In this document: in pieces, positions 3,732-42,275 of the stretch
Numbering within the stretch: position 1 is the stretch's first letter
Layout of the letters: every line of letters starts with the position of its first letter
Origin: Dehalococcoidia bacterium
GTDB lineage: Bacteria > Chloroflexota > Dehalococcoidia > Lucifugimonadales > UBA3495
Direction: 5' to 3'
NCBI GenBank assembly: GCA_965262595.1
Contig: OZ253548.1
Span: 1,371,740-1,435,739 of the forward strand
DNA length: 64,000 bases
Translations under genes and position numbers: made by a program
The notes under the pieces: model-generated
Database searches by the model: none
What the model saw: only the letters and a program-made list of their open reading frames with translations
What the model was told of the DNA's origin: nothing

Positions 3732-4364
3732 ATGGCCGAATCTGATTTCAGAACCTATTACGACTTCCGTTGACCCTTCGTATATAACGCTGCCATGTGG
3801 CTGGCGAAGGTACGAGCAACCACCGGACAGGAAATTGACGTTGACTGGCAGCCTTTCTCCCTGGAGCAGGTGAACAGCGACAAGGGCGAGGACTTCAAGT
3901 ATTGGGAACAGCCGGGCGCCCTCGACGGCTCCGACAATACCCTCCTGGCTCACCGGGCGGGACTAGCCGCGAAGCGTCAGGGCAAAGAGTCCTTCGAGGC
4001 ATTTTTCATTGCCCTGTTGAAGCTGCGCCACGAAGACCGAAAGAGCCTGACCGAACCGGCAGTCATCGACGAAGCGGTCAACAACTCCGGTATTGATATG
4101 GCTCGCTTCCGGGAAGACCTGGCTGATCCCGACCTGCTGCGGGAGATTGGGGAAAGCCACACCATCGCGGTGGAGGAGCACGGCGCATTCGGCGTACCTA
4201 CTTATGTGTTCCCCAACGGCGCAACTGCCTTTGTTAAGATGCACATTCCTCCCGATGAAGCGGCCGGCGAGATTTACGAGTCGCTGACCCGGGTAATTAC
4301 CGGCGCACAGCACGTAGGCGAGCTCAAGCGCCCGTCGCCCCCGTGGCCCCACGGCATCATCTAG
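3732..4364 (+). CDS. DsbA-like thioredoxin-fold protein with in-frame TGA (candidate Sec) at codon 14
   Basis: The track ORF 3795..4364 extends in frame to ATG 3732, which has AGGAGG 7 nt upstream. The N-terminus reads MAESDFRTYYDFR-[TGA 3771-3773]-PFVYNAAMW, so the TGA falls at the DsbA-family active-site Cys position. Confidence 0.6.
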
Positions 4365-14963: not shown

Positions 14964-16811
14964 TTAGCTGCGTCCGAACTCGCGCTCCATGTGGTAGGAA
15001 CTGAAGTGTATCACCGTGGGGCGGCCGTGAGGACAAGTGTGGGGGCTATCCGTCACTTCCAACTGCTCCAGCAAGGAGCGCATCTCGGCATCGGTCATAG
15101 ATTGGCCGGCGCGTATGGCGCTGTGGCAGGCAACCGAGGCGGCCAGTACGTCATCCCGCTCCCGCAACAAACCCTCGAAGGCCACCAGGTCCAGCACGTC
15201 CAAAAGCGACTTGCCCGGATCTCGGGTGGTCAATATGGACGGCACCGCGCGTACCAGATAGCTGCTATCCCCGAAGTGCTCCAGTTCAAAGCCGTAAGCC
15301 CCCAGAAACTCCCGATTTCCGTCCAGAGTCTCGATCTGCCCCGGCGTTAAGTCCACCGGGGCCGGAGCCAGCAGCGGTTGCGATTGGGCTTCCCGTTGGG
15401 CGGCGCGCCGGATTATGCGGTCAAACAACACCCGCTCATGGGCGGCGTGCTGGTCCACCAAATACATTCCGTCGGGGCTTTCCGCCACGATGTAAGTGAG
15501 CCTGACCTGGCCCACCACCCTTAGAGCCGGTAAAGCTTGCTGCGGCGTAAGGGCCGCATCCGGTGGCCCGACCCCATCCAGGCTGTTGCCGCCGCTATAA
15601 CTGCTCCTGCCGTAGTTGCCAGCGTTTCGGACATCGTTGCCGCTGCCGCCGCTCGCTGACTGGGATATGTCAGAACCGTCAGGGCCAAGGGAGCCGGTAC
15701 TCCCGGTATCAAATGGGCTACGGAAGAAACCGGGTCCCACTGACGCGGAAAGCCCAGAACCCGGCGACGGCGTCCCCCGGCCCGGCCCGCGCATATCCCG
15801 CACTGGCGCAGTGGCAACCAGAGCCGACCGCACGGCCCGCTGCAACGACGAATAAACCTTACCTTCCTGGTGGAATCGAACCTCTCGTTTGGCCGGATGG
15901 GAGTTAACGTCCACTTCGCCAAAGGGTAGGGTCAAGTTCAGCGCTGCCAGGGGGTATCGCTTTTCGGGCAGCAACCCGCGGTAAGCGTCCTCCAGGGCAA
16001 AGGAAAGGGTTCTACTCTGAATCCAGCGGCGGTTGACGAAAAAGGTCATATAAGTCCGGTTGGCCCGGTGAAGACTGGGGGCGCTGACCAATCCCTCAAT
16101 CCGGTAGCCGACTGACGGCTCTTCACTGTCAACTTCCAGCATACCGGCGGCCACCTCCGCGCCGTACACCGCCAACAGCGCCTCGGTCAATTTGCCGTTG
16201 CCTGAGGTAGAAAGCGCCTGCCGGTCGCCCACGGTTAGCCGGAAGCTAATTTCGGGGTAGGCGAGAGCATAACGGGAAATCAGGTTGTGGACTCGTGCAG
16301 CCTCCGCAGCCGGAGACTTGAGAAACTTGCGGCGGGCGGGCAAGTTGCCGAAGAGGTCGGCAACAACAACCGAGGTTCCCGGAGGGCAACCCTGAATACC
16401 GTCCCGAATCGGATTGCCCCAGGCAAATTCAATAGAATGCCCCAGGTCGGCGCCTGCCGGGCGGGTGGTCATGGTTATCCGGGACACGGCGGCCATACTG
16501 GGAATGGCTTCCCCGCGAAAGCCCAGGGTAGCGATGGCGTCCAGGTCTTCCGGGGAGATTAGTTTACTGGTGGCGTGATGCTGAAAGGCTAAAGATACGT
16601 CGGTGGCGGCGATGCCGGAACCGTCATCGGTAACCCTTATCTGCTCGATGCCGCCGCCCTTTATTTCGACGGTGATCCGGGTGGAGCCGGCGTCAATGGA
16701 GTTTTCCAGCAACTCCTTGACCACCGACACCGGACGTTCCACGACCTCGCCGGCGGCAATCTGGGCGGCCAACTCCGGAGGTAACACTTTAATGGCCGGC
16801 GGGATGGTCAT
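14964..16811 (-). CDS. mutL: DNA mismatch repair protein MutL
   Basis: The GHKL ATPase N-terminus reads AAGEVVERPVSVVKELLENSIDAG. The first ATG is at 16811; the track start at 16835 is TTG. Confidence 0.9.
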   Translation of the reverse strand: MTIPPAIKVLPPELAAQIAAGEVVERPVSVVKELLENSIDAGSTRITVEIKGGGIEQIRVTDDGSGIAATDVSLAFQHHATSKLISPEDLDAIATLGFRGEAIPSMAAVSRITMTTRPAGADLGHSIEFAWGNPIRDGIQGCPPGTSVVVADLFGNLPARRKFLKSPAAEAARVHNLISRYALAYPEISFRLTVGDRQALSTSGNGKLTEALLAVYGAEVAAGMLEVDSEEPSVGYRIEGLVSAPSLHRANRTYMTFFVNRRWIQSRTLSFALEDAYRGLLPEKRYPLAALNLTLPFGEVDVNSHPAKREVRFHQEGKVYSSLQRAVRSALVATAPVRDMRGPGRGTPSPGSGLSASVGPGFFRSPFDTGSTGSLGPDGSDISQSASGGSGNDVRNAGNYGRSSYSGGNSLDGVGPPDAALTPQQALPALRVVGQVRLTYIVAESPDGMYLVDQHAAHERVLFDRIIRRAAQREAQSQPLLAPAPVDLTPGQIETLDGNREFLGAYGFELEHFGDSSYLVRAVPSILTTRDPGKSLLDVLDLVAFEGLLRERDDVLAASVACHSAIRAGQSMTDAEMRSLLEQLEVTDSPHTCPHGRPTVIHFSSYHMEREFGRS

Positions 16812-16897
16812 AGAATTGTCCCTGCCGTCGGGCAAAACTAGCGGGCTGACTGATTCGCTACAACTAATACGCCTGAAAAGTAACCGCGGCCGTCAGG

Positions 16898-17335
16898 TTA
16901 AAATAGGGGCAGGACGGTGCCTTTGGCGCGATACTGCTTATCTTCCGAGGTGCCTTCCTTGGCAAAATCGCACACCATTTGATAAACGCGGTCCATCTGT
17001 TGGTCCACGTTACGGGCAAAGAAGTACGGAGGAACCCAGGCGCCGCCAAAAGCGGCCACCACTTCCGGGTAGTCGTCAATTACAAAATCCGGTTCACAGG
17101 GAATCTTCAATTCCTCCAGCCGCTCAAGAAAGTGGTGGGTCGGTTTCTCATAGACGCCGCTGATGAAGGGATTAAGATCGTGCTTTTCGATCACTTCCCA
17201 GCGTTCTCCCATACCGGACCAAATGTAGATTTCATGGTTGTCGTCCAAGAGTTTTTGAAAGGTTTCCTTGGTACCCGGTCGCAAAGTGTCGTCCAGCCCG
17301 AGGATGGTGTAATCCACATCAAAAAATATCTTCAT
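16898..17335 (-). CDS. HAD-superfamily hydrolase-like protein
   Basis: The DxDxT motif sits at the N-terminus (MKIFFDVDYT). Confidence 0.55.
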   Translation of the reverse strand: MKIFFDVDYTILGLDDTLRPGTKETFQKLLDDNHEIYIWSGMGERWEVIEKHDLNPFISGVYEKPTHHFLERLEELKIPCEPDFVIDDYPEVVAAFGGAWVPPYFFARNVDQQMDRVYQMVCDFAKEGTSEDKQYRAKGTVLPLF

Positions 17336-17488
17336 CTGCCGACGCCAATCTCCCCACAAAAATGCCCTATGAGATTATCACAAAAACTAATATATAAGCA
17401 AGGGCAACATTGAAACGTAACGGTAGTGTCACCCCGCGACTCGTTGCGAACCCGGCCCAACCTAAACCCCCGCGACCAACTCCCGGCG

Positions 17489-17860
17489 TCAGCCGGCGTC
17501 AATTCCCGCATCGGTCAAGGCTTGACCGATGACGTTCAAGTTAGCGCCGATAAGCAATTTGCCGCCCAACCGGGTCACCGGACGCCGGATTAAGCGCGGT
17601 TCCTGAAGCATCAGTCTCAACAATTCGGCGTCGGGTAGTTCCTGCCCGGCCAAGCCCAACTTCTTCAGGCTGGGACTACGCCAGGCAAACAGCTCAGACA
17701 GCGGCGCCAGCGTGGCAAGGTGGTTAATTTCCGTCTCGCTGAAGGGTTCCTTAAAGAAATCCCGTTCCTCCAATTCCAGTCCCTTTTGTAAGAGCAACTC
17801 CCTTACCTTGCGGCAGGAAGATCAACGGGGCCACCAGAAAAACTCTGCCTTTTCGCTCAT
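17489..17860 (-). CDS. ArsC/Spx-family thioredoxin-fold protein with in-frame TGA (candidate Sec) at codon 13
   Basis: The track ORF 17489..17797 starts at an internal TTG. The same frame continues to ATG 17860, which follows GAGGTG. The N-terminus reads MSEKAEFFWWPR-[TGA 17824..17822]-SSCRKVRELLLQKG, which matches the family CxxC(R/K)KA motif. Confidence 0.65.
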
Positions 17861-18031
17861 ACACACCTCGGGCGAGCCTGCTTTCTTTACCTGTATTTGA
17901 CTAGCTCTCCAGGCTCCGGCTCACCGCCACCGATATTTTAGCCATTGTGGTCAAGAAACTGAAAGCGTTGAGCGGGCCATTGTTGGAGCAATTGCAAAGC
18001 GGTTGAGCCGCTGGTTATCCGGGCCGGGGAT

Positions 18032-20830
18032 TCAGGAGAGCCGATCCTCCGGGTTGCGGGCCTTTTCCTGCAATTCATAGAGCTTGTTGATTGCTTCCAG
18101 CGGGGTCAAGTTGGGAATGTCCAAGTTCATTACCGCATCGGTTAGAGGCTGGTCCGGCTGGAACAGGGGCATTTGCCGCGCCGCCGACTCGGATTTGCTA
18201 CTACGTTTAGCCGGGCTTTTGCGGTTAGAACCGGGCTTTTCCAGCTCCTCCAGGACTTCCCAGGCCCGATTGACCACCGCCCGGGGCAACCCGGCCAGTT
18301 GCGCCACGTGGACGCCATAGCTGCGGTCGGCGCCGCCGGCTACAATGCGGTGCAGGAATACTACCCGTCCCTCCTCCTCAACCACCGCGACGCTGAAGTT
18401 GCGCACGCCGGGCAGGGTGTGGGCCAGTTCGGTCAGTTCATGGTAGTGAGTAGCGAACAGGGTCTTGCAGCCGAGGCGAGGGTCGTTGTGCAGATGTTCA
18501 ATGACCGATCGGGCGATGGAAAGACCGTCGTAGGTACTGGTGCCCCGTCCGATCTCATCCAGAATTACCAGGGACCGGGGCGTGGCCTGATTCAGGATGG
18601 CGGCGGTTTCCACCATCTCCACCATAAAGGTGGACTGACCGGTGGTCAAATCGTCCTGCAAGCCCACCCGGGTAAATATCCGGTCAACCAGGCCAATCGT
18701 GGCTTCAGCCGCCGGAACAAAGCTGCCGATTTGGGCCATCAGGACGATTATGGCCGCCTGGCGGATATAGGTGGACTTGCCCGCCATGTTGGGGCCGGTA
18801 AGGACAACGATACGAGCGTCTTCATTGGAAAGCTGCACATCGTTGGGAACATAAGCCCCTGACCCCAGGGTCTGCTCCACCACTGGGTGACGACCGTCCT
18901 TGATACTGACGGCATTGTCCAGATTCAGCCGGGGGCGGACGTATCCATGAACCGCTGCCACCTCGGCCAGGGCGGAAAACACGTCCAGCGCGGCGATGCC
19001 GGCGGCCAGGCGGCCAATGGACTCGGCATAGTTTCCAATCTGGCTGCACACTTGCCGGAACAACGACCGTTCCATTTCCTGAATTCGTTCCCGGGCATTT
19101 AGTACCAGGGATTCATACTCTTTGAGTTCGGGCACGATATAGCGCTCGCCGTTAGCCAGGGTCTGGCGGCGGGTGTAATCATCGGGCACCTGGCCCAGGT
19201 TGGCCTTGCTGATTTCAATATAGTAACCAAATACCTGGTTGTACCCCACTCGCAGGTTGCGGATGCCGGTGCGTTCCCGCTCCCGCGCCTCCAGACCGGC
19301 GATGAAACCCCGGGCGTCGCGGGAGGCGATTTTCAGTTCGTCCAGTTCCGGGGAGAAGCCTTCCCGGATGATGTTGCCCTCGCCGAGGCTGCCCGCCGGG
19401 TCCGGGGCGATAGACTCTTCAATAAGGGCTGCCGCCTCCGGCACCGGGGATAACTGCCGGAATAGCCAGGCCAACTGGTCAGCGCCTTCTCCTTCCAGGG
19501 TAGCGGCGAGGCGGCCAGAGGCGGTTATACCGGTCTTGAGCGCGATTAACTCCCGGGGAGCCACCGTCCCGGATTGCACCCGGCTCAGGACTCGCTCCAG
19601 GTCGGCGACATTGGTCAGAGCGGTACGAGCATCGCCGCGCCGAAAGGCGTCCTTAAAGAAATGCTCCACCGCGTCCAGGCGGCGTTCCAGCTCCTCCAAT
19701 TGCAATAACGGCTGTCCCATCCAACGGCGCAGGAGCCGACCGCCCATCGGGGTGCGGGTTAAATCCAGGGCAGACAGCAGGGACAATTTCCGGTTTTCCC
19801 AACGCCCGGCCTGGAACAACTCCAGGTTACGTCGGGTCTGGGGGTCCAGAACCATATAATCGCCGCTGGAATAGACACTGAGGGCCGCCAGGCGTGGTTT
19901 GACCGTCTTGTAAGTCTGGCCCAGATAGTCCACGACAGCGCCGGCAGCCCGCACCGCCAGGGGCAGGTTTTCACAGCCAAAGGATTCCAGAGAGCGTATC
20001 TCGTACTGAGCCAGCAGGACGGCCCGGGCCAAGTCCAGGTCAAAGGTTGCCGGGTTCAATTGTGTCAGAGGATAGGGAGTAAAAGAAAAGTCGTTGGAGC
20101 CTGGTCCACGCTGGTCCCCACCCGTTTTTGACTCGACCGAAGCGGCCCCCATCACGGCGGCTCCCTTCACGCTGGCTCCCATAGCAGCGGCTCCCATCAC
20201 GGCGGCTCCCATCGTAGCGGCCCCCATCGTAGCGGCCCGGTTCTCCTCGCCGACCCAGCTTGGCAGGGAATCGGCGGCGGGAACCAGGATTTCCGCCGGG
20301 GCGATGCGTTCCAGTTCCGGCAGCAGGCGTTCGGAAGGAAGTTGGGTGGCGGCAAACTCGCCGGTTGAGATGTCCACGTAGGCCAGCCCCACCGCCGGAC
20401 CGTCTTCAACCACCGCGGCCAGATAGTTGTTGGAGTTCTGATCCAGCAGAGCGGATTCCAGAACCGTGCCGGGGGTAACCACCCGAACGACGTCGCGCTC
20501 CACCAGGCCGCGGGACGTCGCCGGGTCGGTGAGCTGTTCGCAGATTGCCACCTTGTGGCCCTTCTTGATAAGGCGGGCCAGGTAGGGTTCCAGAGAGTGG
20601 GCCGGGACGCCGGCCATCGGGATTTTCAGCCCCTTGCCCATGTTTCGGGACGTCAGGGTTATCTCCAGTTCCCGGGCCGCCAGGCGCGCATCATCGTCGA
20701 AGGTTTCGTAAAAGTCGCCCAGCCGGAACAGCACCAGGGCGTCCGGGTAGGCGTGTTTTATTTTAAGGTATTGGCGGCGTACCGGCGTCAATGTTACCCC
20801 GCTGGCCGGGTCAGAAAGACTCAAACTCAT
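18032..20830 (-). CDS. mutS: DNA mismatch repair protein MutS
   Basis: 932 aa with Walker A GPNMAGKSTYIRQ and the N-terminal mismatch-binding motif GDFYETF. Confidence 0.95.
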   Translation of the reverse strand: MSLSLSDPASGVTLTPVRRQYLKIKHAYPDALVLFRLGDFYETFDDDARLAARELEITLTSRNMGKGLKIPMAGVPAHSLEPYLARLIKKGHKVAICEQLTDPATSRGLVERDVVRVVTPGTVLESALLDQNSNNYLAAVVEDGPAVGLAYVDISTGEFAATQLPSERLLPELERIAPAEILVPAADSLPSWVGEENRAATMGAATMGAAVMGAAAMGASVKGAAVMGAASVESKTGGDQRGPGSNDFSFTPYPLTQLNPATFDLDLARAVLLAQYEIRSLESFGCENLPLAVRAAGAVVDYLGQTYKTVKPRLAALSVYSSGDYMVLDPQTRRNLELFQAGRWENRKLSLLSALDLTRTPMGGRLLRRWMGQPLLQLEELERRLDAVEHFFKDAFRRGDARTALTNVADLERVLSRVQSGTVAPRELIALKTGITASGRLAATLEGEGADQLAWLFRQLSPVPEAAALIEESIAPDPAGSLGEGNIIREGFSPELDELKIASRDARGFIAGLEARERERTGIRNLRVGYNQVFGYYIEISKANLGQVPDDYTRRQTLANGERYIVPELKEYESLVLNARERIQEMERSLFRQVCSQIGNYAESIGRLAAGIAALDVFSALAEVAAVHGYVRPRLNLDNAVSIKDGRHPVVEQTLGSGAYVPNDVQLSNEDARIVVLTGPNMAGKSTYIRQAAIIVLMAQIGSFVPAAEATIGLVDRIFTRVGLQDDLTTGQSTFMVEMVETAAILNQATPRSLVILDEIGRGTSTYDGLSIARSVIEHLHNDPRLGCKTLFATHYHELTELAHTLPGVRNFSVAVVEEEGRVVFLHRIVAGGADRSYGVHVAQLAGLPRAVVNRAWEVLEELEKPGSNRKSPAKRSSKSESAARQMPLFQPDQPLTDAVMNLDIPNLTPLEAINKLYELQEKARNPEDRLS
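20142..20237. repeat. 15-nt tandem repeat, about 6.4 copies, in frame inside mutS
   Basis: The units are GCGGC(C/T)CCCAT(C/A)(A/G)(C/T)(G/A). They encode ATMGA-ATMGA-AVMGA-AAMGA-SVKGA-AVMGA. Confidence 0.9.
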
Positions 20831-21923: not shown

Positions 21924-24824
21924 TCAGCCCGCGGCCGCCCTGGCCGCTTCATCGGACTTAACTACCCGGGCCGCAAGGATATCCAGCCCAGGCACTTTGG
22001 ACATAGGATCCGGGTCCTCCGATGCTTGAAGGTCAACCGCTAGTTGGCCGAAAAGAGTCACCACCGAAACCACGCCGGCGGGTATTTCGGAGTCCACCCT
22101 GGCCAGACCGGCCAAACGGCCTCGTCGGGTCTGCACTTCCACCATATCACCTTCGGAGATAGACCAGGAGTCGGCGTCCGACGGGTTCAGCTCTACCAGT
22201 TCATCACGGACGATCCGGTTGCGGCTAACGTTGCCGCTGCTGCTGCCGCTAGTCTCGGTTACCACGTTGATTTCCCGGTCTTCCTGGAACAGCACCCGAC
22301 CCGGAACAAACCAGGCCGGATATTCTTCATCCGGCGGCGCCTGGGAAGAGCGGAACCGGGGAACGATTAGTTCGGCCCGGCCCGACGGGAAACCGTCAAG
22401 ATATAAGACCGCGGTACCGACCCTGGACGTTGTCGAGCCGGGCCACTGAATGCCCCGGTACTCTTTACTGGCATAGAGGAGCTGGGTGGGCTTGGGACTT
22501 TCCAGACCGCTGCGCAGTACCAAAGCGGATTCCGACTCCAGCCTCCCGTAGGATAGGCCGGCGTAGTTGGGCACAACCTGGACAATTTCGTCCATCACCG
22601 CTTCGGCGGACGGGTAATCAAAACCCGGGGCGCCAAGCCTTTTGGCCAATTCGATAAGGAACCACTGTTCGGACTTGGCCTCACCTTTTCCAGGGGCTAA
22701 AACGGGCCGGATTCTCTGGATGCGCCGCTCCAAATTGGTATAAGTGCCATCCTTTTCGGCAAAGGTCGAACGGGGCAGCACCACGTCGGCCAATTGGGCC
22801 GGAGCGCTGAGAAAAGAATCCATCACCACCAGGAAATCTAGGTTTCGGAGGGCGTCCAAGCCCTCTCCCAACCGGCGGTTAGCGAGATTGGAACTGTCGC
22901 CAATTACCATCATCGCCTTGACCGATCCATCCCGGGCGGCGGCTAGTGTTTCAGCGATGCCTCGACCCGGCGCGGTGGGCAGCGAGCATTCCCAACGCTC
23001 CTCCAGTTCGCGGCAGGTCTGGCTGTTCCGTCGGGCGTCGGCTTCGGAGAGGAAGCCCGGTCCAACTCCGGGCAGGCGGTTGGGGATACAAGCCATGTCC
23101 CAGGAACCCTGTTCGTTGGCGCCCTGACGCATCGGGTAGATACCGGCGCCGGGTTTGCCCACGTTTCCGGTCAGCAAAACCAGGTTAACCAGGGCATTGA
23201 CACAGTCCCGTTGCAAATCTTCAGGGACGTTATCCAGAGCGTAGCATAGAGCAGCGCAATCCGCCTCTCCGAACAGTCGAGCGGCTTCGGCAATCCGTTC
23301 CTGAGAGACCTGGGTAATTGCCGCAACTTCACCCAGGTCCAGGTTGTTCAAATAATAGTAGAGTGTAGTGGGGGACTCACAATTGCGCTCAATCCACTCC
23401 GTATCTACCAGGCCTTGGTCTAGCAGCTCCCGCAGGATGCCACCCAGAACCAATAGCTCGGTGCCGGGGGCGGGCCGGAGCCAGCAGCGGGTATAACGGG
23501 TCAGTTCTACTTCCCGGGGGTCGATAACAACCAGATTTGCGCCGTTCTGCACTGCCCGCTTAATCGGCACGCCCACCACGTTGTTGGCCTCGGTGAGGTT
23601 GGAATTAAAAACCAGGATGCAACCGGCTTGCTCCAAGTCCCAGATAGGATTGGTCGCCGCCCCGTAACCCAGGGCTTGCTCCAGGGCAATGGTTAGTTCC
23701 GGCTGAACGTTAGAGGTGAGGTCCACGTTATTGGAGTTCATCACTGCCCGGGCAAATTTCTGCGCCAGGTAGAGTTCTTCGTTGGTGCCGTCGGGCGAGG
23801 CCAGCAAGGCGAAGGAATCGCCTTTATACCGGGAAAGCTGCCCGGCAACAAAGTCCAGCGCTTCCCCCCACGTAGCCTCGACCAGGTTTCCATTGCGGCG
23901 AATCATCGGTTGCCGCAACCGGCTCCGGCTGTTGATGAACTCCAGGCCAAACTTACCCTTAAAGCAAGCCTGCCCCCGATTGGCCGGAGAATTATGCTCC
24001 GGTACGACCCGGATAAGCTCGCCGCGGCCGTTTAGTTCCAGATTTAGCTGGCAGCCGACCGGGCAGTGGGGACAGACGGTACGTTCTACCGTCCGCGCCT
24101 TTTCCCACTTATGTTCCCGTTCCACCAGCGCGCCCACCGGACAAACATCGATGCAGGAGCCGCAAAACTCGCAGCCCGATTCCAGCAGAGAGGAGCCAAA
24201 AGAGGTGCCGACCAAGGCTTTACCGGACCGCTCGGTGAAGGTAATTGCGTTATCGCCGCGAATTTCCTCGCAGGCCCGTACACAGCGTCCACAGGTGATG
24301 CACAAGTTATAGTCCCGGTCATAGAAAGGGTCGCTGACTTCCAGGGGAATCTGCTTGTAGTTGTAATTGAGGGCCGATTCCAGCTCCATCCCCAGGTAGC
24401 GCACCGTGTCCTTGAATTCGCAGCGTTCGTTCTTGGGGCAGGTGACGCAGCGGTCATTAACCGACACATGGCGGAGACAAATATCGTTGGGGCCGCAAAT
24501 ATCAACGCGGTGGCAGGTGAGACAGCCGCTGGGATGCTCGGCGATGAGCATTTCCATTACTGAGCGACGCAGTTCATTTACTTCATGAGTCTCGCTGCGG
24601 ATGCTCATACCGTCCTGAACCGGCAGGGTGCAGGCGGCGGGATAGCCCCGGCCGCCTTCCACCGAAACAACGCACATTCGGCAGGCGGCAAAGGGTTTCA
24701 TGCCGGGGTGATAGCACAAGTAGGGGATATATATGCCGGCGTCAACCGCCGCTTCCAGGACCATTTTTCCGGGCTGAGTTTTTATCTCGATTCCGTCAAT
24801 GGCGATGGTGATATCGTCGGGCAT
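21924..24824 (-). CDS. NuoG / formate-dehydrogenase-alpha-like Fe-S molybdopterin-fold subunit
   Basis: The N-terminus has a 2Fe-2S domain, several 4Fe-4S Cys clusters and the CPHCPVGC motif, followed by a molybdopterin oxidoreductase fold. No Cys or Sec was seen at the FdhF ligand position. Confidence 0.8.
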   Translation of the reverse strand: MPDDITIAIDGIEIKTQPGKMVLEAAVDAGIYIPYLCYHPGMKPFAACRMCVVSVEGGRGYPAACTLPVQDGMSIRSETHEVNELRRSVMEMLIAEHPSGCLTCHRVDICGPNDICLRHVSVNDRCVTCPKNERCEFKDTVRYLGMELESALNYNYKQIPLEVSDPFYDRDYNLCITCGRCVRACEEIRGDNAITFTERSGKALVGTSFGSSLLESGCEFCGSCIDVCPVGALVEREHKWEKARTVERTVCPHCPVGCQLNLELNGRGELIRVVPEHNSPANRGQACFKGKFGLEFINSRSRLRQPMIRRNGNLVEATWGEALDFVAGQLSRYKGDSFALLASPDGTNEELYLAQKFARAVMNSNNVDLTSNVQPELTIALEQALGYGAATNPIWDLEQAGCILVFNSNLTEANNVVGVPIKRAVQNGANLVVIDPREVELTRYTRCWLRPAPGTELLVLGGILRELLDQGLVDTEWIERNCESPTTLYYYLNNLDLGEVAAITQVSQERIAEAARLFGEADCAALCYALDNVPEDLQRDCVNALVNLVLLTGNVGKPGAGIYPMRQGANEQGSWDMACIPNRLPGVGPGFLSEADARRNSQTCRELEERWECSLPTAPGRGIAETLAAARDGSVKAMMVIGDSSNLANRRLGEGLDALRNLDFLVVMDSFLSAPAQLADVVLPRSTFAEKDGTYTNLERRIQRIRPVLAPGKGEAKSEQWFLIELAKRLGAPGFDYPSAEAVMDEIVQVVPNYAGLSYGRLESESALVLRSGLESPKPTQLLYASKEYRGIQWPGSTTSRVGTAVLYLDGFPSGRAELIVPRFRSSQAPPDEEYPAWFVPGRVLFQEDREINVVTETSGSSSGNVSRNRIVRDELVELNPSDADSWSISEGDMVEVQTRRGRLAGLARVDSEIPAGVVSVVTLFGQLAVDLQASEDPDPMSKVPGLDILAARVVKSDEAARAAAG

Positions 24825-24878
24825 TCCATCCTCTCCGGCCCGGCCTTGAAACCGGGCTAGGTAACGGGCGTTGTTAGT

Positions 24879-26642
24879 TTATCTCCGGCTGAGTTGGGGC
24901 GAAAAATAAGGCGCACAGCAGCGTCCGGTAGGGCAAAGTCGCTCGTTAATGTGAGTATCGAACTCGTCGGCAAAATAACGCAAGGCCGAGGCTACCGGAT
25001 TAAAACCCAACTGCCCGTGACCGCACAGCGAACCGGCCTGCATATTTTCGCCAATGGTCCGCATCAAAGCCAGGTCTTCCGAGTTCCCCTCCAGACGGGT
25101 AATACGTTCCAGCACTTCCAGCAGATGGCTCATACCCATTCGGCAGGGGAAACACTTGCCGCAGGACTCATACTGGCAAAAGGCGATGAGTACCCGGGTC
25201 AAGTCCACCACGCAGGTGTCCTCGTCGGCGGCAATGATTCCACCGGAACCAAGGATGGCTCCGGCGTTGCGAAACACTTCAAAATCCAGGGCCAAATCGG
25301 TGGCTTCGGCGCTAAGGACGCCGCCCAGCGGCCCGCCGGTTTGGATAAACTTGAGCTTCCGCCCATTGGGAATGCCCCCGGCAATTTCGTAAAGCACATC
25401 CTGCAGATTGATGCCCATCGGCAGTTCCACCATGCCGGTATAGTTCAAAGCGCCGGTGAGACAGAGAATCACCGTGCCGGTACTGCGTTCGTGGCCGATG
25501 CCGGCGAACCATTCGCCGCCGCGAGCGATAATCTCCGGAACGTAGGCCAGGGTCTTGACGTTATTTACGTTGGTTGGCTTGCCGAACACCCCGACCTGAG
25601 CCGGAAAGGGCGGACGGTACCGGGGCATGGCGCGGCTACCCTCGATGGCCTCCATGAGGGCGGTTTCCTCGCCGGAAACGTAAGAATCCCCGGTCAATGC
25701 AATTTCCAGGTCGAAGCTGAACCCGGAACCGAGGATATTTTCGCCCAGCAAGCCCAACTCGTAAGCCTGGGCGATGGCGGCGCGGGTCCGCTCGATGGGG
25801 CCGTCGTGCCCGTGGCGAATAAATATATACCCGTAATGAGCGCCGGTGGCGTAGCCGGCCAGAATGATGCCCTCCACCACCGTATGCGGATCGCTTTCCA
25901 GGATACCTTTATCGTTAAACGCGCCCGGGTCGCCTTCCTCGCAATTGCACAGGACATACTTGACCGGAGCATTTGACCCGGCCAGGAACCGCCACTTGGT
26001 CCCAGTGGCAAAGGCGGCGCCGCCCCGGCCCCGCAGACCGGAAACGTTGACTTGCTCCAGGACGTCGGCGGCGGTCATTTCGGTCAGGGCTTGATTCAGG
26101 GCATGATAGCCGCCGTTAGCCACATACTGGAACAGGTCCAGCGGGTCAATATGTCCGGCATTGCGCAGGGCGATACGCTGTTCCCTGGCCCGCATGGGGT
26201 GACGGTTCAAGTCAGGTAAGCCTGCGGCATGGGACGGGGCGACATTCGGGGAACCACTCTCCGGGTCGCCGTCTTTTTCGTCGTCACAACCCAGGTAACC
26301 CAGGGCCAGGTCTTCCAGCGGTATTCCATGTAATACGTGGCGAACGACAATCTCCTCGGCTCTCTCCGGGGTAACATTGCCATAGAAGACGCGAGACTGG
26401 CCGGGCACCAGCACATCCACCAGGGGTTCGGCAAAACAGAGGCCCAGGCACCCAACCCGGCTTACCGCAGCGGTCGCGCCGTGCCGCTTCAGGGACTCTT
26501 CGATGGCCCTAACTACTTCATCGGCCCCGGCGGCTTGGCCGCACAAAGCTGTGCCCACCCGAATCCAGGTATGGCTGCCTTTAGTCAACGACTGCCAGCG
26601 TTGCCGGGCCTGAGCCTGAATGTCCTCAAAGGTTGGGGCCAT
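24879..26642 (-). CDS. NuoF-like NADH-binding FMN/4Fe-4S subunit with N-terminal thioredoxin-like 2Fe-2S domain
   Basis: The motifs GGAAFATGTKW, CNCEEGDPGAF and ESCGKCFPCRMG are present. Confidence 0.85.
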   Translation of the reverse strand: MAPTFEDIQAQARQRWQSLTKGSHTWIRVGTALCGQAAGADEVVRAIEESLKRHGATAAVSRVGCLGLCFAEPLVDVLVPGQSRVFYGNVTPERAEEIVVRHVLHGIPLEDLALGYLGCDDEKDGDPESGSPNVAPSHAAGLPDLNRHPMRAREQRIALRNAGHIDPLDLFQYVANGGYHALNQALTEMTAADVLEQVNVSGLRGRGGAAFATGTKWRFLAGSNAPVKYVLCNCEEGDPGAFNDKGILESDPHTVVEGIILAGYATGAHYGYIFIRHGHDGPIERTRAAIAQAYELGLLGENILGSGFSFDLEIALTGDSYVSGEETALMEAIEGSRAMPRYRPPFPAQVGVFGKPTNVNNVKTLAYVPEIIARGGEWFAGIGHERSTGTVILCLTGALNYTGMVELPMGINLQDVLYEIAGGIPNGRKLKFIQTGGPLGGVLSAEATDLALDFEVFRNAGAILGSGGIIAADEDTCVVDLTRVLIAFCQYESCGKCFPCRMGMSHLLEVLERITRLEGNSEDLALMRTIGENMQAGSLCGHGQLGFNPVASALRYFADEFDTHINERLCPTGRCCAPYFSPQLSRR

Positions 26643-26760
26643 ACTAATTTTTACTCAAGGGATTCGCCGGATAGCGGCAACTTCCGGGGAGCGCCCGGCC
26701 TACGGCCTTCGGAACGAAGATTTTCTCAAAACGAGGCATTGCCCCCATTCCTGCTCCACC

Positions 26761-27249
26761 CTATCCTTGCCAGGCGTCGGCCAGGGACTTGCTCAAAGTC
26801 TTTATTAGATTGTCCCGAGCCCGCTCCGGAGACAGGCGGCCCATTAGTCGATGGTCAACGGACATTACCGGCGCTTGGGCGCAAGCCCCCAGGCAGGTGT
26901 TGTAGCGCACCGATAGCTTGCCGTCCGGCGTGTCTCCCTCCGCCGCCAGTCCGGCAGCCTCCAGAACGGCGGCAATAACCGGCATCGCCCCGACCAAGTG
27001 GCAAGACGGGCCCCAACAAACCTCGACATGATGCTCGCAGGGTGGCACAGTACGAAAGTTGGGGTAAAAAGAAACCACCGCCCAAACATCGTTAACGGTG
27101 GCCCGGTTAAACCCGGCTACCGCTTGCACGGCTTCTTTGGGGATATAGCCCAACTCGTCTTCAACGGCGAGCAAGGAGGAGAGGATAGTAACGGTAGGTT
27201 GAGGTTGATTGTGGACGGCCTTCCTGATTCGTTGCTTCAACCCATCCAT
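26761..27249 (-). CDS. NuoE-like 2Fe-2S ferredoxin subunit
   Basis: The Cys pattern is VCWGPSCHL...CLGACAQAP. Confidence 0.85.
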   Translation of the reverse strand: MDGLKQRIRKAVHNQPQPTVTILSSLLAVEDELGYIPKEAVQAVAGFNRATVNDVWAVVSFYPNFRTVPPCEHHVEVCWGPSCHLVGAMPVIAAVLEAAGLAAEGDTPDGKLSVRYNTCLGACAQAPVMSVDHRLMGRLSPERARDNLIKTLSKSLADAWQG

Positions 27250-27509: not shown

Positions 27510-28160
27510 CTACTCGCCCTTCAAATACTGATTCATCGCCGACTTGAAAATATCGTAGGGTTGGGCGCCGGTGAAGAGCAGGTTGCCTACCACAAAAGTT
27601 GGTATTCCCCGGATGCCGTACTGCAGCGCCTCCTGGTATTGCTCCATCACCTTGGAGGAATAATGACGGCTTTGCAGCCGGTCCATCAGCTCGTCAGTGT
27701 CCAGGCCCACCGACCCGGCCACCTCTTCAATCGCCGCTAGTTGCCCCAAGTCCTTCCCGTCCTCCCAATAGGCCTTATAGGCGGCGTGGTGAAACTCCAT
27801 AAACTTGCCCTGCTGCTGGGCATACTCGGTGGCTTCCAGGGCATAGCCGGTATTGGGAGTAACCCGGGGCGGACGCATAATCAGGTTAGCATCGCGCACC
27901 TGAGAGCGAATTGGCTCGCTCAACTCGTCCTCGGTTTCTCCGGAACGGGCTTGACGCTGCAAGCCCTCTTTGGGGGTATCCGGACGGAGCAAGTAAGCCC
28001 GCCCCTCCACGGCAATGTTATAGTCCTGGCCCAACTTGTCGACCCGCTCCAGGCCGACGTAGCACCAGGGTCAAATATAATCGTACCAAACGATAACCCT
28101 TACCGGATCTGAGCCGTTCAGGTCGGAGCTGTTATTTGGTTGCGATACCGATTCAGTCAT
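27510..28160 (-). CDS. FrnE/DsbA-like dithiol oxidoreductase with in-frame TGA (candidate Sec) at codon 30: U-P-W-C motif
   Basis: The track ORF 27510..28034 starts at an internal TTG. The frame continues to ATG 28160, with AGGAGG 6 nt upstream. The sequence reads ...VRVIVWYDYI-[TGA 28073..28071]-PWCYVGLERV, against the family consensus CPWCY. Confidence 0.75.
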
Positions 28161-32532: not shown

Positions 32533-32576
32533 GCCTATAGTACCATACGGGCGCACACGCACGTAGGGGGGTGTCT

Positions 32577-33944
32577 ATGGCCGACCGCAACTTTGCCAAC
32601 CGGACGCTGTACCACGGCGACAACATGGACTTCCTGCGAGGAATGAACTCCGGTACAGTCAATCTTATCGCTACCGACCCGCCCTTCAACAAGTCCCGTG
32701 ATTTTCACGCTACCCCCGACAGCCTGGCTAAAGGGGCCAGATTTGTTGACCGCTGGAGTTGGGATAGAGATGTTCACGAAGAATGGGTGGACGCTATCAA
32801 GGATGATTGGCCCGGTGTCTGGCAGGCCATAGAGAATGGCCGGGTTAATCATAGTCCAGGCATGGCTGCTTTTCTCTGTTGGTTAGGGATTCGTTTAATC
32901 GAAATGCGTCGTGTTTTGGCCGATGATGGGAGTATCTATCTGCATATCGACCATACTGCCCACGCCTACGCCAAAGCCTTGATGGACGCTATCTTTGGGC
33001 AACGCAACTTTAGAAATGAGCTTGTTTGGTGCTATAAATCAGGGGGTGCGAGTCCTTCACGATACTTTAGTCGGAAGCACGACACAATTTTGTGGTACAC
33101 CATAGGAAGGCAGTATTGTTTTAATCCCCAGCAAGAAAAGTCCTATAATCGAGATTTCAAGCCTTACCATTTTGCTGGTGTCAAGGAATATAAAGACAAT
33201 AAAGGCTGGTACACACTCGTTGGGATGAAGGACTATTGGGAAATTGACATGGTTGGGCGGACGAGTGGAGAACGTACCGGCTTCCCTACGCAAAAACCAT
33301 TGGCCCTCTATGAGCGCATCATCCACGCCAGTAGCAACCCCGGCGATGTAGTCCTTGACCCATTCTGCGGGTGTGCCACCACGCCCATTGCGGCTGAACG
33401 CTTGGGCCGTCAATGGGTAGGTATGGATATTTGGGACGGGGCGGTTGACGCTGTGCGAGCAAGAATAGCCGACAACCGCCAGCTATTGACCGAATCCAAT
33501 CCAACGATTACCTACGCCACCACCCCGCTGGAGCGCACCGATAATCCCGACCCCCACACTCCAACCGTACCTGATTTACAGTTGCGGATACGTCGGATAA
33601 AGGAACGCTGGGAGAGGCTTTCCCACGCCGAGATGCGGGATATACTCGCCACCGCTCAAGCAAGCGGGGATAGCGTAGTTTGCGCCGGTTGCGGTATCGC
33701 CCTTCCCGTCCGTTATATGCAACTAGACCACCGGGACCCACGAAAGGACGGCGGGGAGAACCTAATCACCAACCGGATTCTGCTGTGCGCTCCCTGCAAC
33801 AACTTAAAGCGGGCTGAACTGACACTTTCTGGATTAGTACGGGATAACAAGCGGGCCGGGTATATGGACAATGAGGCTATGGCAGACCTGGCCCAGACCA
33901 AAGCGAGGGACGCCGCCAACCGATGTAGGGCTGAAATGAGATAA
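32577..33944 (+). CDS. N4/N6 DNA methyltransferase (beta-class, DPPF) fused to a C-terminal HNH nuclease domain
   Basis: Motif IV is LIATDPPFNKSRDF and motif I is VLDPFCGCATTPIAAERLG. The C-terminus reads CAGCG...LDHRDPRKDGGENLITNRILLCAPCNNLKRAE. The start is ATG 32577 or GTG 32571. Confidence 0.8.
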   Translation: MADRNFANRTLYHGDNMDFLRGMNSGTVNLIATDPPFNKSRDFHATPDSLAKGARFVDRWSWDRDVHEEWVDAIKDDWPGVWQAIENGRVNHSPGMAAFLCWLGIRLIEMRRVLADDGSIYLHIDHTAHAYAKALMDAIFGQRNFRNELVWCYKSGGASPSRYFSRKHDTILWYTIGRQYCFNPQQEKSYNRDFKPYHFAGVKEYKDNKGWYTLVGMKDYWEIDMVGRTSGERTGFPTQKPLALYERIIHASSNPGDVVLDPFCGCATTPIAAERLGRQWVGMDIWDGAVDAVRARIADNRQLLTESNPTITYATTPLERTDNPDPHTPTVPDLQLRIRRIKERWERLSHAEMRDILATAQASGDSVVCAGCGIALPVRYMQLDHRDPRKDGGENLITNRILLCAPCNNLKRAELTLSGLVRDNKRAGYMDNEAMADLAQTKARDAANRCRAEMR

Positions 33945-33956
33945 GGAGAGTCAAGT

Positions 33957-34091
33957 ATGGCAACGAACCGGAACAAAAGGGAACCGGAAAAGCCGGTGGA
34001 GACACCAAAGCCGCCACGTACCTGCACCTGCGGCATTGAAATTGAGAAAGCTAAAAGGTTGTGTGCCGAGGCCGACTGCCCCTATCGGTAG
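33957..34091 (+). CDS. 44-aa Cys-containing small ORF (below the ORF-track cutoff)
   Basis: AAGGAGAG lies 6 nt before the ATG. The product is MATNRNKREPEKPVETPKPPRTCTCGIEIEKAKRLCAEADCPYR, with four Cys. Confidence 0.3.
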   Translation: MATNRNKREPEKPVETPKPPRTCTCGIEIEKAKRLCAEADCPYR

Positions 34092-34117
34092 TCTGCCCCT
34101 GCAATGGGAGGAAGATT

Positions 34118-35164
34118 ATGGCCGAATACACCGATACCATTACCACCAAGATACTCTGCCCCGATTGCGACTCCCCCGACGTGGTGAAGCACGGCTTCCA
34201 GAACGGCCAGCAACGCTATCGCTGTAAGCCCTGTGGCAACCGCTTTCGTTACAACGGCAAACCACAGGGCCGGCAACTCCAAAGCGAACATACCGGGGCG
34301 GCGGTCAGAATGTTCTACATGGGTATGTCCTATAAGCAGATTGCCGAAACTATGGAGAAACAGCACGACATCCCCGAACCTTCCAAGCACACCGTCTATG
34401 CCTGGGTCAAGCGATACACCGATGAGGCCGTTACCGAAAGCCGCAATCCCCAATACCGGGCGCATACCGGCGATGTTTGGGTTGCTGACGAAATGCAGGT
34501 CGTGGTCGGCGGCGAGAAGTATTGGCATTGGAACGTGATGGATGAGGATACCCGCTACGTCCTCGCCTCTTATCTGACCAAAGAACGGACTACCAGGGCG
34601 GGTACGGAGGTAATGCGCCGGGCCAAGTTAGCCGCCGCCAATGAACCGAAGGAAATCAAGACGGATAGGCTGAGTTCCTATGACGGGGCCATAGACCGCG
34701 TATTCCCCCTGGCCAAGCACGTCAAAGCGGACGGGATACAGGCGGAAGTCAACAACAATATGTCGAAACGGCTACAGGGTAGCTACCGCTCCCGTACCAA
34801 GACCCTGCGGGGATTGGACAGCCGGGAGACGGGGCAAAGGTATCTGGACGGCTGGACGCTGACCTACAACAATTTCCGAGACCACGAGGGCGCGGACGGG
34901 GAACCGCCGGCGGTCAAGGCCGGAGTGAAACTGCCCTATGACGAATGGGCGGACGTGGTACGGGGCAATGACGGCTCGCCGGACCAAATGCACGAATACC
35001 GGAAGGTTGCCGCTCTGGAACGGCCCACCTACCGGATTGTGCCGCCGTCAGGAATGGGGGAACCGGCTTTCCGGCGGCGGGCTACACCGAGAAAGCCGAG
35101 GGGGATGGGCGGGTCTAGCGGCACTCGCAAAATCGTGGTGACGGGCAAGGCAAGTGTCGGCTGA
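34118..35164 (+). CDS. DDE transposase, IS6-like, with N-terminal Zn-finger
   Basis: GGGAGGAAG precedes ATG 34118. The Zn finger is CPDCDSPDVVKHG...YRCKPCGNRF. The DDE-type core reads WVADEMQVVVGGEKYWHWNVMDEDTRYVL...IKTDRLSSYDGAI. Confidence 0.8.
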   Translation: MAEYTDTITTKILCPDCDSPDVVKHGFQNGQQRYRCKPCGNRFRYNGKPQGRQLQSEHTGAAVRMFYMGMSYKQIAETMEKQHDIPEPSKHTVYAWVKRYTDEAVTESRNPQYRAHTGDVWVADEMQVVVGGEKYWHWNVMDEDTRYVLASYLTKERTTRAGTEVMRRAKLAAANEPKEIKTDRLSSYDGAIDRVFPLAKHVKADGIQAEVNNNMSKRLQGSYRSRTKTLRGLDSRETGQRYLDGWTLTYNNFRDHEGADGEPPAVKAGVKLPYDEWADVVRGNDGSPDQMHEYRKVAALERPTYRIVPPSGMGEPAFRRRATPRKPRGMGGSSGTRKIVVTGKASVG

Positions 35165-37992: not shown

Positions 37993-38661
37993 CTAAATCG
38001 CCGCCCTTATTTCCTCAACCAAGGAATTGATGCGGTTGGCTTGAGCTATATTGAATATGCCGGTAATCTCATCGCTCCGATAGCCCACCAAGTCGGTAGG
38101 CACCGCGTTGGATACGATGTAAAAGGGAGATGTCTTGTTTTGGCGTCGGAACTTTAGGGCGTTGGCTTGGGCTTTCTTCCAGGTGTCCGAGCGTTCCAGC
38201 CCGGGCCTATAAATGGTGGTCACTGTATCGTCCGGGTTCTGCACGTAACGGGGCGACCCTTTGGTTTCAATGGCAACTCGGGGCGTAACCTCCAGATCAT
38301 GAGTGTTGGTATTGCCCGGGGTGGCTACAGCCGGCAGTTCAAACCTGGTGGACAAGAGATACCGCACTGCGCTTTCAAAGACCTTTCCAACTATTGACGA
38401 CCGGGCTTGAAAAGTAGCTACCTCAAACACCCTGCCGGAATCGCATAAAGGGCATTTCAAAGGCATATTGCCAAATGCCGCGGTAGTAGTTCCACCACCA
38501 ATACAAGCCACGCAGGCCCAAGCCGGATAGCAGGCAACTGCGTCAATAGCCTGTTGAAAGCAGCCATTGAAGTAATTTTGCAGCCGCCCGTTGGTTAATT
38601 GCCGGTTACTGATAGGCGGATAATTAGCCCGGACGATTTCATCATACGGAATAGCCGGCAC
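37993..38661 (-). CDS. type II restriction endonuclease candidate (Cys-cluster N-terminus + PD-(D/E)xK core)
   Basis: The core reads HDLEV...VAIETKG (D...ExK). Cys clusters are CYPAWACVAC...CPLC. It overlaps the 3' end of the adjacent methylase by 20 nt. Confidence 0.55.
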   Translation of the reverse strand: MPAIPYDEIVRANYPPISNRQLTNGRLQNYFNGCFQQAIDAVACYPAWACVACIGGGTTTAAFGNMPLKCPLCDSGRVFEVATFQARSSIVGKVFESAVRYLLSTRFELPAVATPGNTNTHDLEVTPRVAIETKGSPRYVQNPDDTVTTIYRPGLERSDTWKKAQANALKFRRQNKTSPFYIVSNAVPTDLVGYRSDEITGIFNIAQANRINSLVEEIRAAI

Positions 38662-39628
38662 TGCTCACCTCCGCGATAATCCGACCATCGGGATTGACCT
38701 GGACAAAGAGTTGGGGCGATGCCGCCAAACGGCGGTAGGCCAGGGCCTGGTATTCCGGGGAAATCTCATAGCCCACAAACCGGCGGCCGGTGTTCAGCGC
38801 GGCCAGAGCCGTGGTGCCGCTGCCCATAAAGGGGTCCAGCACCACCTCGTCCGAGTAGGTGTAAAGCTCGATGCAGCGGCGGGGGAGCTCCTCGGGAAAG
38901 GGGGCGGGATGCCCGATGCGCCGGGCCGATGTTGCGGGGAATTGCCAGATGCTACGGGTACACGCCAGGAAATCGTCCCGGCTGATGGTGGCTTGGCGGT
39001 TGGGGAGTTTGGGCCGCCGCCAGGTGTCCTTGCAGAGAACGAGGATGTATTCGTGGACATCCCGCAGCGTGGGGTTGGTGGGGGACTTCCAACTGCCCCA
39101 GGCGGTGGAGGATGCGGCGCTGGCCGCCTTGTCCCAGATGATTTCCCCCCGCATCAAGAAGCCCAGTTCTTGCAAGTCCTCAATGATGTAGCGGTGCAGG
39201 GGCAGGTAGGGACGGCGGCCCAGGTTAGCGATGTTGAAGCAGATCCGACCGCCCGGCACCAAGACCCGGTGGACCTCCCCCATCACGGTGCGGAGGAAGT
39301 CCCGGTACTCGGCCAGGGTCAGGTCTTCGTCGTATTCCTTCCCCACGTTATAGGGCGGAGAGGTCACCATCAGGTGGACGCTGCAATCGGGCAGGGCGTC
39401 CATCTTCTCTGCCGAAACGGGCAGGATGGTATTGGCGACACCGTAGGGTAGGGGATTTTCTACATACGCAACCCGGCGTTCCGCCGGCTGGTCAGCGTAA
39501 AGCCGGCCGGCGTAGAAGCGCGAGGAGTCATGCCCATGCCGCCCCGCCGCCCCAAAGGCGGAAGTTTGGGTTTTCCACCCCAAATTGTCGGGGGGGGGGG
39601 GGGGTAGATTGTTATTATCGGAATTCAA
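38642..39628 (-). CDS. N4-cytosine/N6-adenine DNA methyltransferase (beta-class, SPPY)
   Basis: Motif IV is LMVTSPPYNVGKEY and motif I is VLDPFMGSGTTALAA. It has a TTG start, and the N-terminus contains PPPPP encoded by the G15/C15 tract. Confidence 0.85.
   Translation of the reverse strand: MNSDNNNLPPPPPDNLGWKTQTSAFGAAGRHGHDSSRFYAGRLYADQPAERRVAYVENPLPYGVANTILPVSAEKMDALPDCSVHLMVTSPPYNVGKEYDEDLTLAEYRDFLRTVMGEVHRVLVPGGRICFNIANLGRRPYLPLHRYIIEDLQELGFLMRGEIIWDKAASAASSTAWGSWKSPTNPTLRDVHEYILVLCKDTWRRPKLPNRQATISRDDFLACTRSIWQFPATSARRIGHPAPFPEELPRRCIELYTYSDEVVLDPFMGSGTTALAALNTGRRFVGYEISPEYQALAYRRLAASPQLFVQVNPDGRIIAEVSSAGYSV
39590..39604. repeat. homopolymer G15 (C15 on the coding strand) inside the methylase 5' end
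   Basis: Counted directly in the sequence. It encodes Pro x5 at codons 9-13. Confidence 0.9.
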
Positions 39629-41321: not shown

Positions 41322-42275
41322 TTATCGGTTGACTTGACTGACATGAGGGCTGTCCACTGCCGTGACATAACGGGCTTCATCTTCCAAGAGCATCAATTGT
41401 TCCATTTCCCCAGTCGGTTCTTTGGCAAAGTTGCCGGGTTTGTAATTAGTAACGATTGCTTCCAGCATGGCTTTTCTGTTTCTCTCGTAGGCGCCAACGT
41501 GATAAAAGTGCTCTTGGGTCAAAATAGAAAATTCGCTCCAAAGCTCCTGGATGAACCGGTTCTCCCGGTGCTGGTTACTATGCCATGTGGACAACATGAA
41601 CCTTGCACGGGTGTTCTTCAAGCTAGTATGCAGCAGATTTTCCTTGTGCGCATCCCAAGTTTGATAATAGTCAACATGTCGGTCAACGTAGGGTGGGTCG
41701 CAATACACGAAGTCGCGGTCTGTAGCGTCCTGAATTGTTTTCTGGAAGTCCTGGCAGACAAAGCTCCAGTCGAGCACCTGTGTGGCTGCTCTAAAGCGCT
41801 CCACCTGATTGACTATTTTCGTAATGTAAGCCGGTGCGAATCGCTTCGGTTTGTGCCCATACGGAACATTGAAGTGTCCTTTACTGTTGAACCGGACGAG
41901 TCCGTTAAAGCAAGATCGGTTAAGGAAGAGGAAATCCAGTGGGTAGCCAAATGAATTGAAACGGTCCCTGACACGGTAGTAGTGGGCCTTTCCTTCATTT
42001 GCAAGCAAGACCCCTTCACGTTCGAGAAAAATCCTTGTTTTCTTCCCGTCTATTTCCCCGTCCTTGATGGCCTGATAAAACCGAATCATGTGGGGGTTGG
42101 TATCTGCCAGTATGGCGTTTTGGGGTAGAACATTTAGAACAACTACCCCGGAACCCAGGAACGGTTCGATCCATGTTCCTTCAGTATCCCGGTCGAGGCA
42201 CCGCAATATAGTCGGGACCAGCTTGGTCTTGATGCCCTGGCACTTTAGCGGAGGTACTAGTATTCGCAAATTCAT
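41322..42275 (-). CDS. Dam-family (D12 class, alpha) N6-adenine DNA methyltransferase, M.EcoRV-like
   Basis: Motif I is EPFLGSGVVVLN and motif IV is VYCDPPYVDRHVDY. It overlaps the upstream nuclease gene by 4 nt. Confidence 0.85.
   Translation of the reverse strand: MNLRILVPPLKCQGIKTKLVPTILRCLDRDTEGTWIEPFLGSGVVVLNVLPQNAILADTNPHMIRFYQAIKDGEIDGKKTRIFLEREGVLLANEGKAHYYRVRDRFNSFGYPLDFLFLNRSCFNGLVRFNSKGHFNVPYGHKPKRFAPAYITKIVNQVERFRAATQVLDWSFVCQDFQKTIQDATDRDFVYCDPPYVDRHVDYYQTWDAHKENLLHTSLKNTRARFMLSTWHSNQHRENRFIQELWSEFSILTQEHFYHVGAYERNRKAMLEAIVTNYKPGNFAKEPTGEMEQLMLLEDEARYVTAVDSPHVSQVNR

Follow-up and report, generated by a model that had tools for sequence, protein, structure and literature searches.

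Does an in-frame UGA at the thirteenth codon of a small gene end its translation, or is it read as an amino acid and, if so, as which one? The gene that raises this question lies on the minus strand of a 64,000-nucleotide stretch of DNA from a Dehalococcoidia bacterium, here called the window. Its frame reads MSEKAEFFWWPR, then TGA (17824..17822), then SSCRKVRELLLQKG..., and ends with TGA 17491..17489; the residues that follow the internal TGA of this ArsC/Spx-like frame are SSCRKVRELLLQKGLELEERDFF... The corresponding entry in the list of open reading frames, 17489..17797, is a 102-codon piece only, which begins at TTG, a leucine codon, and has neither the N-terminal strand nor the CxxC motif of the family. 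As a preliminary description of this DNA had proposed, the extracted sequence and its translation take the frame 5′ of that piece to an ATG (17860-17858), which opens it 3 nt behind a Shine-Dalgarno-like GAGGTG (17864..17869, minus strand). The coding sequence of the putative selenoprotein then occupies 17489..17860 (minus strand) and has 123 codons when the TGA at 17822..17824, the only one in frame before the stop, is counted as selenocysteine (Sec) 13. Three codons further on, TGC at 17813..17815 specifies Cys16, the predicted resolving partner in U-S-S-C.

How widespread is this arrangement? A scan with one genome per species yielded 80 related loci from distinct genomes, with protein identities of 53-85%, and the titles of nearly all of them are those of Dehalococcoidia, SAR202 or Chloroflexota metagenome-assembled genomes. 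A TGA is present at exactly the same codon, with the frame intact on both sides, in all 80, a pattern far past chance. It is flanked by (F/L)YWWPR on one side and by S-S/T-C-R/K-K on the other. That the 36 nt upstream of the TGA would be coding in relatives had been part of the preliminary description, and such is the case. Apart from the retention of FYWWPR, column entropy over the 11 codons 5′ of the TGA is 0.63, 0.58 and 1.15 bits at codon positions 1, 2 and 3, respectively, and this concentration of variation at third positions is a coding signature. A start codon is present exactly 12 codons before the UGA in 77 of the 79 loci analysed, an SD-like purine motif is at the matching place in 78 of 79, and the orthologues (79 loci) are 117-123 codons long.

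What kind of protein is specified, and what do relatives without the TGA have in its place? For profile and homology searches the TGA was rendered as Cys. With that substitution, as had been suggested, the protein matches the Pfam ArsC family (PF03960) over the whole domain, residues 8-111 aligning with profile positions 1-76 of 79, and the score is 59.8 bits where the gathering threshold is 24. The top NCBIfam scores, to the nearest bit, are 53 for Spx/MgsR, 50 for Spx and 43 for ArsC, and for every specific NCBIfam family the protein is below the curated cut-off (TIGR01617, Spx/MgsR, 53.3 against 75.05; NF002459, 49.8 against 123; TIGR00014, glutaredoxin-dependent ArsC, 42.8 against 106.05), from which it follows that the protein forms a subfamily of its own within the ArsC/Spx superfamily. 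NF041106 (ArsC_rel_Se_1, ‘ArsC family (seleno)protein’), a curated Sec-aware model of an ArsC-like subfamily, gives 27.2 bits where 85 are needed, and so it represents a different subfamily, with that now considered being outside the reach of the model. That GenBank entries are shortened ‘hypothetical proteins’ is consistent with NF041106 not covering this subfamily.

By sequence, the nearest relatives with a solved structure are Spx proteins (E ~1e-11), with arsenate reductases at ~1e-5 in the same PDB search. In the PDB alignment, Cys10 of Spx from B. subtilis is matched by the TGA and Cys13 by the retained Cys, within the shared string C-x-S-C-R-K-x-R, so that the N-terminal CxxC switch of Spx/MgsR has its counterpart as UxxC at the Cys10/Cys13 positions. 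The comparison with Cys-containing homologues, also proposed earlier, drew on full-length relatives found among 1.84 billion representative proteins; 21 of these relatives were aligned with Spx and the window protein (alignment A4). Both the TGA column and the Cys16 column are invariant Cys in the 21 homologues and Spx, and across the 80 loci the Cys16 codon has an invariant TG with C or T as third base. The two central expectations of the preliminary description, that the TGA replaces the conserved first Cys of the motif and that the second Cys is kept, have thus been upheld. For the structure, use was made of the AlphaFold model (pLDDT 90) of a natural Cys variant, P0003, which is 69% identical. 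It has the ArsC/Spx fold, and in a fold search its best PDB matches are to proteins of the Spx family, with ArsC and YffB coming next at equal TM values. The TM range is 0.75-0.81, and the fold search with this model does not separate the Spx, ArsC and YffB subfamilies.

In bacteria the element that directs Sec insertion, the SECIS, is defined as a stem-loop that directly follows the UGA for Sec on its 3′ side (PMC9312934). Is there one here? A search downstream of 17822 on the minus strand, in the region where the preliminary description had advised looking, identified a hairpin at 17788..17806 in which a 7-bp stem, 17806-17800 with 17794-17788, is closed by an AGUUG loop, 17799-17795. Its sequence is GUAAGGG-AGUUG-CUCUUAC, its stem begins 15 nt 3′ of the UGA, and it is within the codons for K-V-R-E-L-L-L-Q. 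All seven pairs are standard in every one of 78 distinct sequences (100% of cells), with only 32-50% of cells being paired in slid-register controls. Compensatory double changes are found at three pairs, UA<->CG in 24 sequences, AU<->CG in 10 and AU<->GC in 3, these being raw counts without correction for phylogeny, and the covariation score was reached by none of 500 shuffles. In some of these changes an amino acid replacement on one arm of the stem, Val/Ala in one case and Leu/Val/Ser in another, goes with a synonymous change on the other arm, where the synonymous partners are Leu UUA/UUG or Arg AGR/CGR. Synonymous sites in the hairpin are frozen: Glu is encoded by GAG without exception, and the second Leu by CUC/CUU. 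In 71 of 78 sequences the loop reads AGUUG, and its AGUU is invariant. Entropy at third positions is 0.64 within the hairpin, compared with 1.23 upstream of it and 1.68 downstream, and in two distant Cys-form homologues only 2/7 and 3/7 of the pairs can form in register, so that these lack the hairpin. When single sequences 3′ of the UGA were folded, stability was no greater than that of shuffles (z -0.05 to -0.7), and so support for the hairpin is purely comparative.

An outer helix that appears in some minimum free energy folds (A2 columns 47-51 with 77-81) was considered and discarded, as only 61.5% of its cells are paired and coding accounts for the fixation of the two C-G pairs that are well paired. 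One sequence in the close clade, and the only Cys form found within it, is L082 (365-736; Logan SRR13378643), which has TGC in place of TGA and yet a fully intact hairpin; this reflects a Sec-to-Cys replacement of very recent date or else a read/sequencing error. Like the SECIS of E. coli fdhF, the hairpin is within coding sequence shortly 3′ of the UGA, and it differs from elements of that type in having a 7-bp stem with an AGUUG loop ~22 nt after the UGA and no evident bulged U. Bacterial SECIS elements have a GU dinucleotide in their apical loop, a trait known from fdhF and from work on the Moorella SelB-SECIS interaction, and we take a GU-containing AGUUG loop at this distance to fit with them. 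The 17806-17788 hairpin is accordingly named here as the putative SECIS for UGA 17824-17822, and as such it would bind SelB.

Could the TGA nevertheless be a true stop, the gene being the shortened ORF that starts at TTG 17797 or nearby and the 12 upstream codons being a leader peptide or non-coding? Gene callers annotate it in this way, and of the 443 database homologues, nearly all among the 120 matches listed are 92-106 aa long. No Sec machinery is visible in the 64-kb window either: selA, selB and selD were not found among the window ORFs screened with Pfam or NCBIfam, ARAGORN detected neither tRNA-Sec nor any other tRNA, and Rfam gave no match. However, the homologue lengths imply that gene calls are cut at the same place, and a product so shortened would be without strand β1 and the whole active-site motif. 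The starts that the callers chose also differ among orthologues, being Leu codons, or Met only where S14 is M, whereas the start 12 codons upstream and its SD motif are conserved, as are the frame and FYWWPR-x-SSCRK across the TGA in all 80 genomes. The TTG of the window, moreover, is within the loop of the conserved hairpin. A true stop can therefore be given hardly any credence. Scarcely better placed, and to be given very little, is translation of the UGA as something other than Sec, whether by genome-wide reassignment to Trp or Gly or by SECIS-independent near-cognate read-through with insertion of Trp or Cys. Two database entries, P0085 (locus L081) and P0152, do have W at the Sec position, but the DNA for P0085 reads TGA and its W is an artefact of the code table used by the gene caller. 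UGA is the ordinary terminator of 11 of the 44 large ORFs in the window, of the ArsC/Spx-like gene itself and of 28 of 79 orthologues, and so it is not reassigned. Read-through that is independent of a SECIS would also have to be reconciled with the codon being on an invariant redox Cys, a classic Sec/Cys pair, and with a covarying hairpin, its loop containing GU, at SECIS distance. Further, the lineage is documented as Sec-using. BSepDB (2026) draws only on species having the Sec pathway, and its ten bacteria richest in selenoproteins include Dehalococcoidia bacterium UBA1141, with 49 selenoprotein genes, and isolate 10f4566d-..., with 46 (PMC13326102). Both of these sister genomes are among those from which loci were retrieved (L048 and L034, respectively), and from such relatives we infer that the genome of the window itself has the capacity for Sec decoding. 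The conservation of the UGA, coding on both sides of it, the covarying hairpin and the Cys/Sec correspondence lead to the reading that TGA 17824-17822 very probably specifies selenocysteine under the direction of a SECIS.

The gene is not alone in the window in having such a TGA. The preliminary description had drawn a parallel with two DsbA-like genes, and an in-frame TGA is indeed present in both (28073..28071 and 3771..3773). In the first, 27510-28160 on the minus strand, the TGA is on the first Cys of YDYI-U-PWCY; with C substituted the protein matches PF01323 with 120 bits (the listed ORF is only 174 aa), and a strong hairpin follows the TGA (MFE -26.8, z -3.4). On these sequence features it is probably a second selenoprotein gene. 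The other, 3732-4364 on the plus strand, is DsbA/Rv2466c-like and its TGA is in YYDFR-U-PFVY, where there is no second Cys (U-P-F-V). The ORF downstream, 3795-4364, matches PF01323 and PF22234, and the hairpin after the TGA is, taken alone, unremarkable (z -0.8). A separate observation concerns the base just 5′ of the UGA. In the ArsC/Spx-like gene (window 17825, minus strand; A2 column 36) it is U in 78 of 78 distinct orthologue sequences. The codon before the Sec UGA is CGU, AGU or AAU, and the third base of CGN is four-fold degenerate. U likewise precedes UGA in the two DsbA-like genes (CGU-UGA and AUU-UGA). Sec insertion may require a U directly 5′ of UGA as part of its context.

If the TGA is read as Sec, what would be made and what would it do? 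A ribosome starting at ATG 17860 would meet UGA at codon 13, where the hairpin, acting as a bacterial SECIS, would recruit SelB-GTP-Sec-tRNA(Sec) so that selenocysteine is inserted in place of termination. The predicted product, a member of the ArsC/Spx superfamily, is a cytoplasmic selenoprotein of 123 residues in which Sec13-Ser-Ser-Cys16 would be at the start of helix α1 of the thioredoxin-like ArsC/Spx fold, in the place of the Cys10-x-x-Cys13 redox pair of Spx and, for Sec13, of the catalytic Cys12 of ArsC. The selenolate would attack an oxidised substrate, perhaps a disulfide or an S-thiolated protein, or possibly an oxyanion adduct; a selenenylsulfide with Cys16 would then form and be reduced by the cellular thiol system. 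Given such a selenenylsulfide cycle and class of substrate, we infer that the protein is a thiol/selenol oxidoreductase or a redox sensor.

Which of these two is it, and is arsenate a candidate substrate? The positions of the redox pair match those in Spx (PDB 1Z3E, 3GFK, 7F75) and are followed likewise by R-K-x-R, such that U-S-S-C-R-K-V-R mirrors the C-T-S-C-R-K-A-R of Spx, and an RRP motif is shared. Spx proteins are the closest of the solved relatives and come at the top of the fold search, the best NCBIfam match is to Spx/MgsR, and one Cys homologue has been named Spx/MgsR by JGI. On this basis the protein could be an Spx-like redox-sensing regulator that binds RNA polymerase and has a Sec-Cys switch, instead of being a catalytic oxidoreductase. 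Yet its score with the Spx/MgsR model is well short of the cut-off (53 against 75), its fold is just as similar to those of ArsC and YffB, and in the alignment it is without the ~15-residue C-terminal tail of Spx. It differs from Spx also in having Sec at Cys10, in its F-A-W-R-S-P-S-L-K and E-P-R-L-I-R-R-P signatures and in its host, which is of the Chloroflexota, whereas the characterised Spx proteins that we know of are from Firmicutes. To our knowledge essentially all characterised selenoproteins use Sec catalytically, and for this reason a catalytic thiol/selenol oxidoreductase is favoured, with the regulator being an unlikely alternative. Highly unlikely, in turn, is that the protein is an arsenate reductase of the glutaredoxin-coupled ArsC type that depends on selenium. 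Public names do include ‘arsenate reductase-like’, and the protein has in common with the ArsC of plasmid R773 (PDB 1I9D, TIGR00014) its Pfam family and fold, with U13 aligning with Cys12 and R93 with the retained Arg94. Against this, there is apparently no counterpart of Arg107 and Arg60 is two residues off the conserved Arg61, the motif is UxxC and not CxxS, the TIGR00014 score is 43 where 106 would be needed, and the gene is in the company of mutS, a HAD-like gene and mutL, with no ars operon or ars genes nearby. On the motif, the missing Arg107, the TIGR00014 score and the lack of ars context, a canonical arsenate reductase was rejected.

The neighbours merit attention in their own right. 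Upstream, in 75 of 80 loci, is mutS (18032..20830, minus strand), which in the window encodes MutS domains I-V. Downstream, in 80 of 80, is a small HAD-like gene (16898..17359, minus strand) whose likely start is ATG 17335 and whose product has a DVDYT motif, and the next gene in that direction, in 79 of 80, is mutL (14964..16835, minus strand; MutL_C, DNA_mis_repair and HATPase_c_3). The order mutS / ArsC-like selenoprotein / HAD-like / mutL (14964-20830, minus strand) is accordingly kept in 75-80 of the 80 loci (L001-L080). The HAD-like protein, 145-153 aa in length, is 69-93% identical across loci, higher than MutS or MutL, and its family matches are weak (TIGR00099, E 6e-4; PF08282, E 7e-3). 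The idea that it is a relative of Vsr endonuclease was dropped, the PDB match concerned being at chance level (E 0.44). Scans for promoters and terminators between mutS and mutL found no sites, which fits, weakly, with an operon. Probable co-transcription of the ArsC/Spx-like gene with its mutS, HAD-like and mutL neighbours is all that we conclude from the gene order. Cys-form homologues are in other contexts, with a LysR neighbour in one case and a molybdopterin oxidoreductase neighbour in another, and these contexts gave no functional lead. Might a Sec-based, Spx-like redox sensor that binds RNA polymerase be co-transcribed with mutS and mutL in SAR202? It is improbable; if true, sensing of oxidative or thiol stress would be coupled to the expression of mismatch repair, and the protein would be the first selenoprotein transcription regulator.

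Elsewhere in the window, 21924-27249 (minus strand) is a cluster like that for NAD-linked formate dehydrogenase, with FdhA/NuoG-like (966 aa), NuoF-like and NuoE-like products. The FdhA-like ORF scores 483 bits with TIGR01591, under the cut-off, and is uninterrupted, and so it has no Sec codon. This cluster adjoins the DsbA-like gene 27510-28160. Restriction-modification and mobile elements are scattered through 32571-33944, 34061-35164, 38642-39628, 41322-43201 and 52311-53812. The genes at these five intervals include several for DNA methyltransferases, one for an EcoRV-like restriction endonuclease accompanied by a D12 adenine methylase, one for an IS-type DDE transposase and one for a His-Me/endonuclease VII-like protein.

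How much of this is new? ArsC-like selenoproteins were reported in 2006 (PMC1794560). In their 2008 analysis of GOS data, Zhang and Gladyshev counted 42 Sec and 238 Cys sequences in an ‘Arsenate reductase 2’ family (cd03032 = ArsC_Spx, UxxC; PMC2398784), and a 2022 review lists an ‘Arsenate reductase-like protein, COG1393, UxxC’ (PMC9312934). ArsC/Spx-like selenoproteins with UxxC are thus already known from marine metagenomes (PMC2398784). By motif and family description the window protein probably belongs to the GOS ‘Arsenate reductase 2’ family: both are of ArsC/Spx type with Sec first in UxxC, both are from marine bacteria and both have Cys homologues. By comparison with that family as a whole, the SAR202 clade of the window is distinctive in that practically all of its members have Sec (80/80) and the gene has a fixed place between mutS and mutL. 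What may be new is the conserved mutS / selenoprotein / HAD-like / mutL order, and also that the Sec-aware ArsC model of NCBI misses the subfamily.

The biology of the locus is ordinary for its lineage, and neither the fixed use of Sec nor the position between mutS and mutL changes what is known of Sec decoding or of ArsC/Spx proteins. The value of the finding is chiefly for annotation. Public entries for the orthologues, ~98 aa long, go under ‘arsenate reductase-like glutaredoxin family protein’ or ‘hypothetical protein’; like the gene itself, hundreds of orthologues are stored as 92-106-aa fragments or ‘hypothetical proteins’ without the active site. With correct calls, the very large selenoproteomes of marine Dehalococcoidia/SAR202 would gain one further entry, and the fixed use of Sec in 80 of 80 species, together with the place of the gene between mutS and mutL, may be of modest biological interest.
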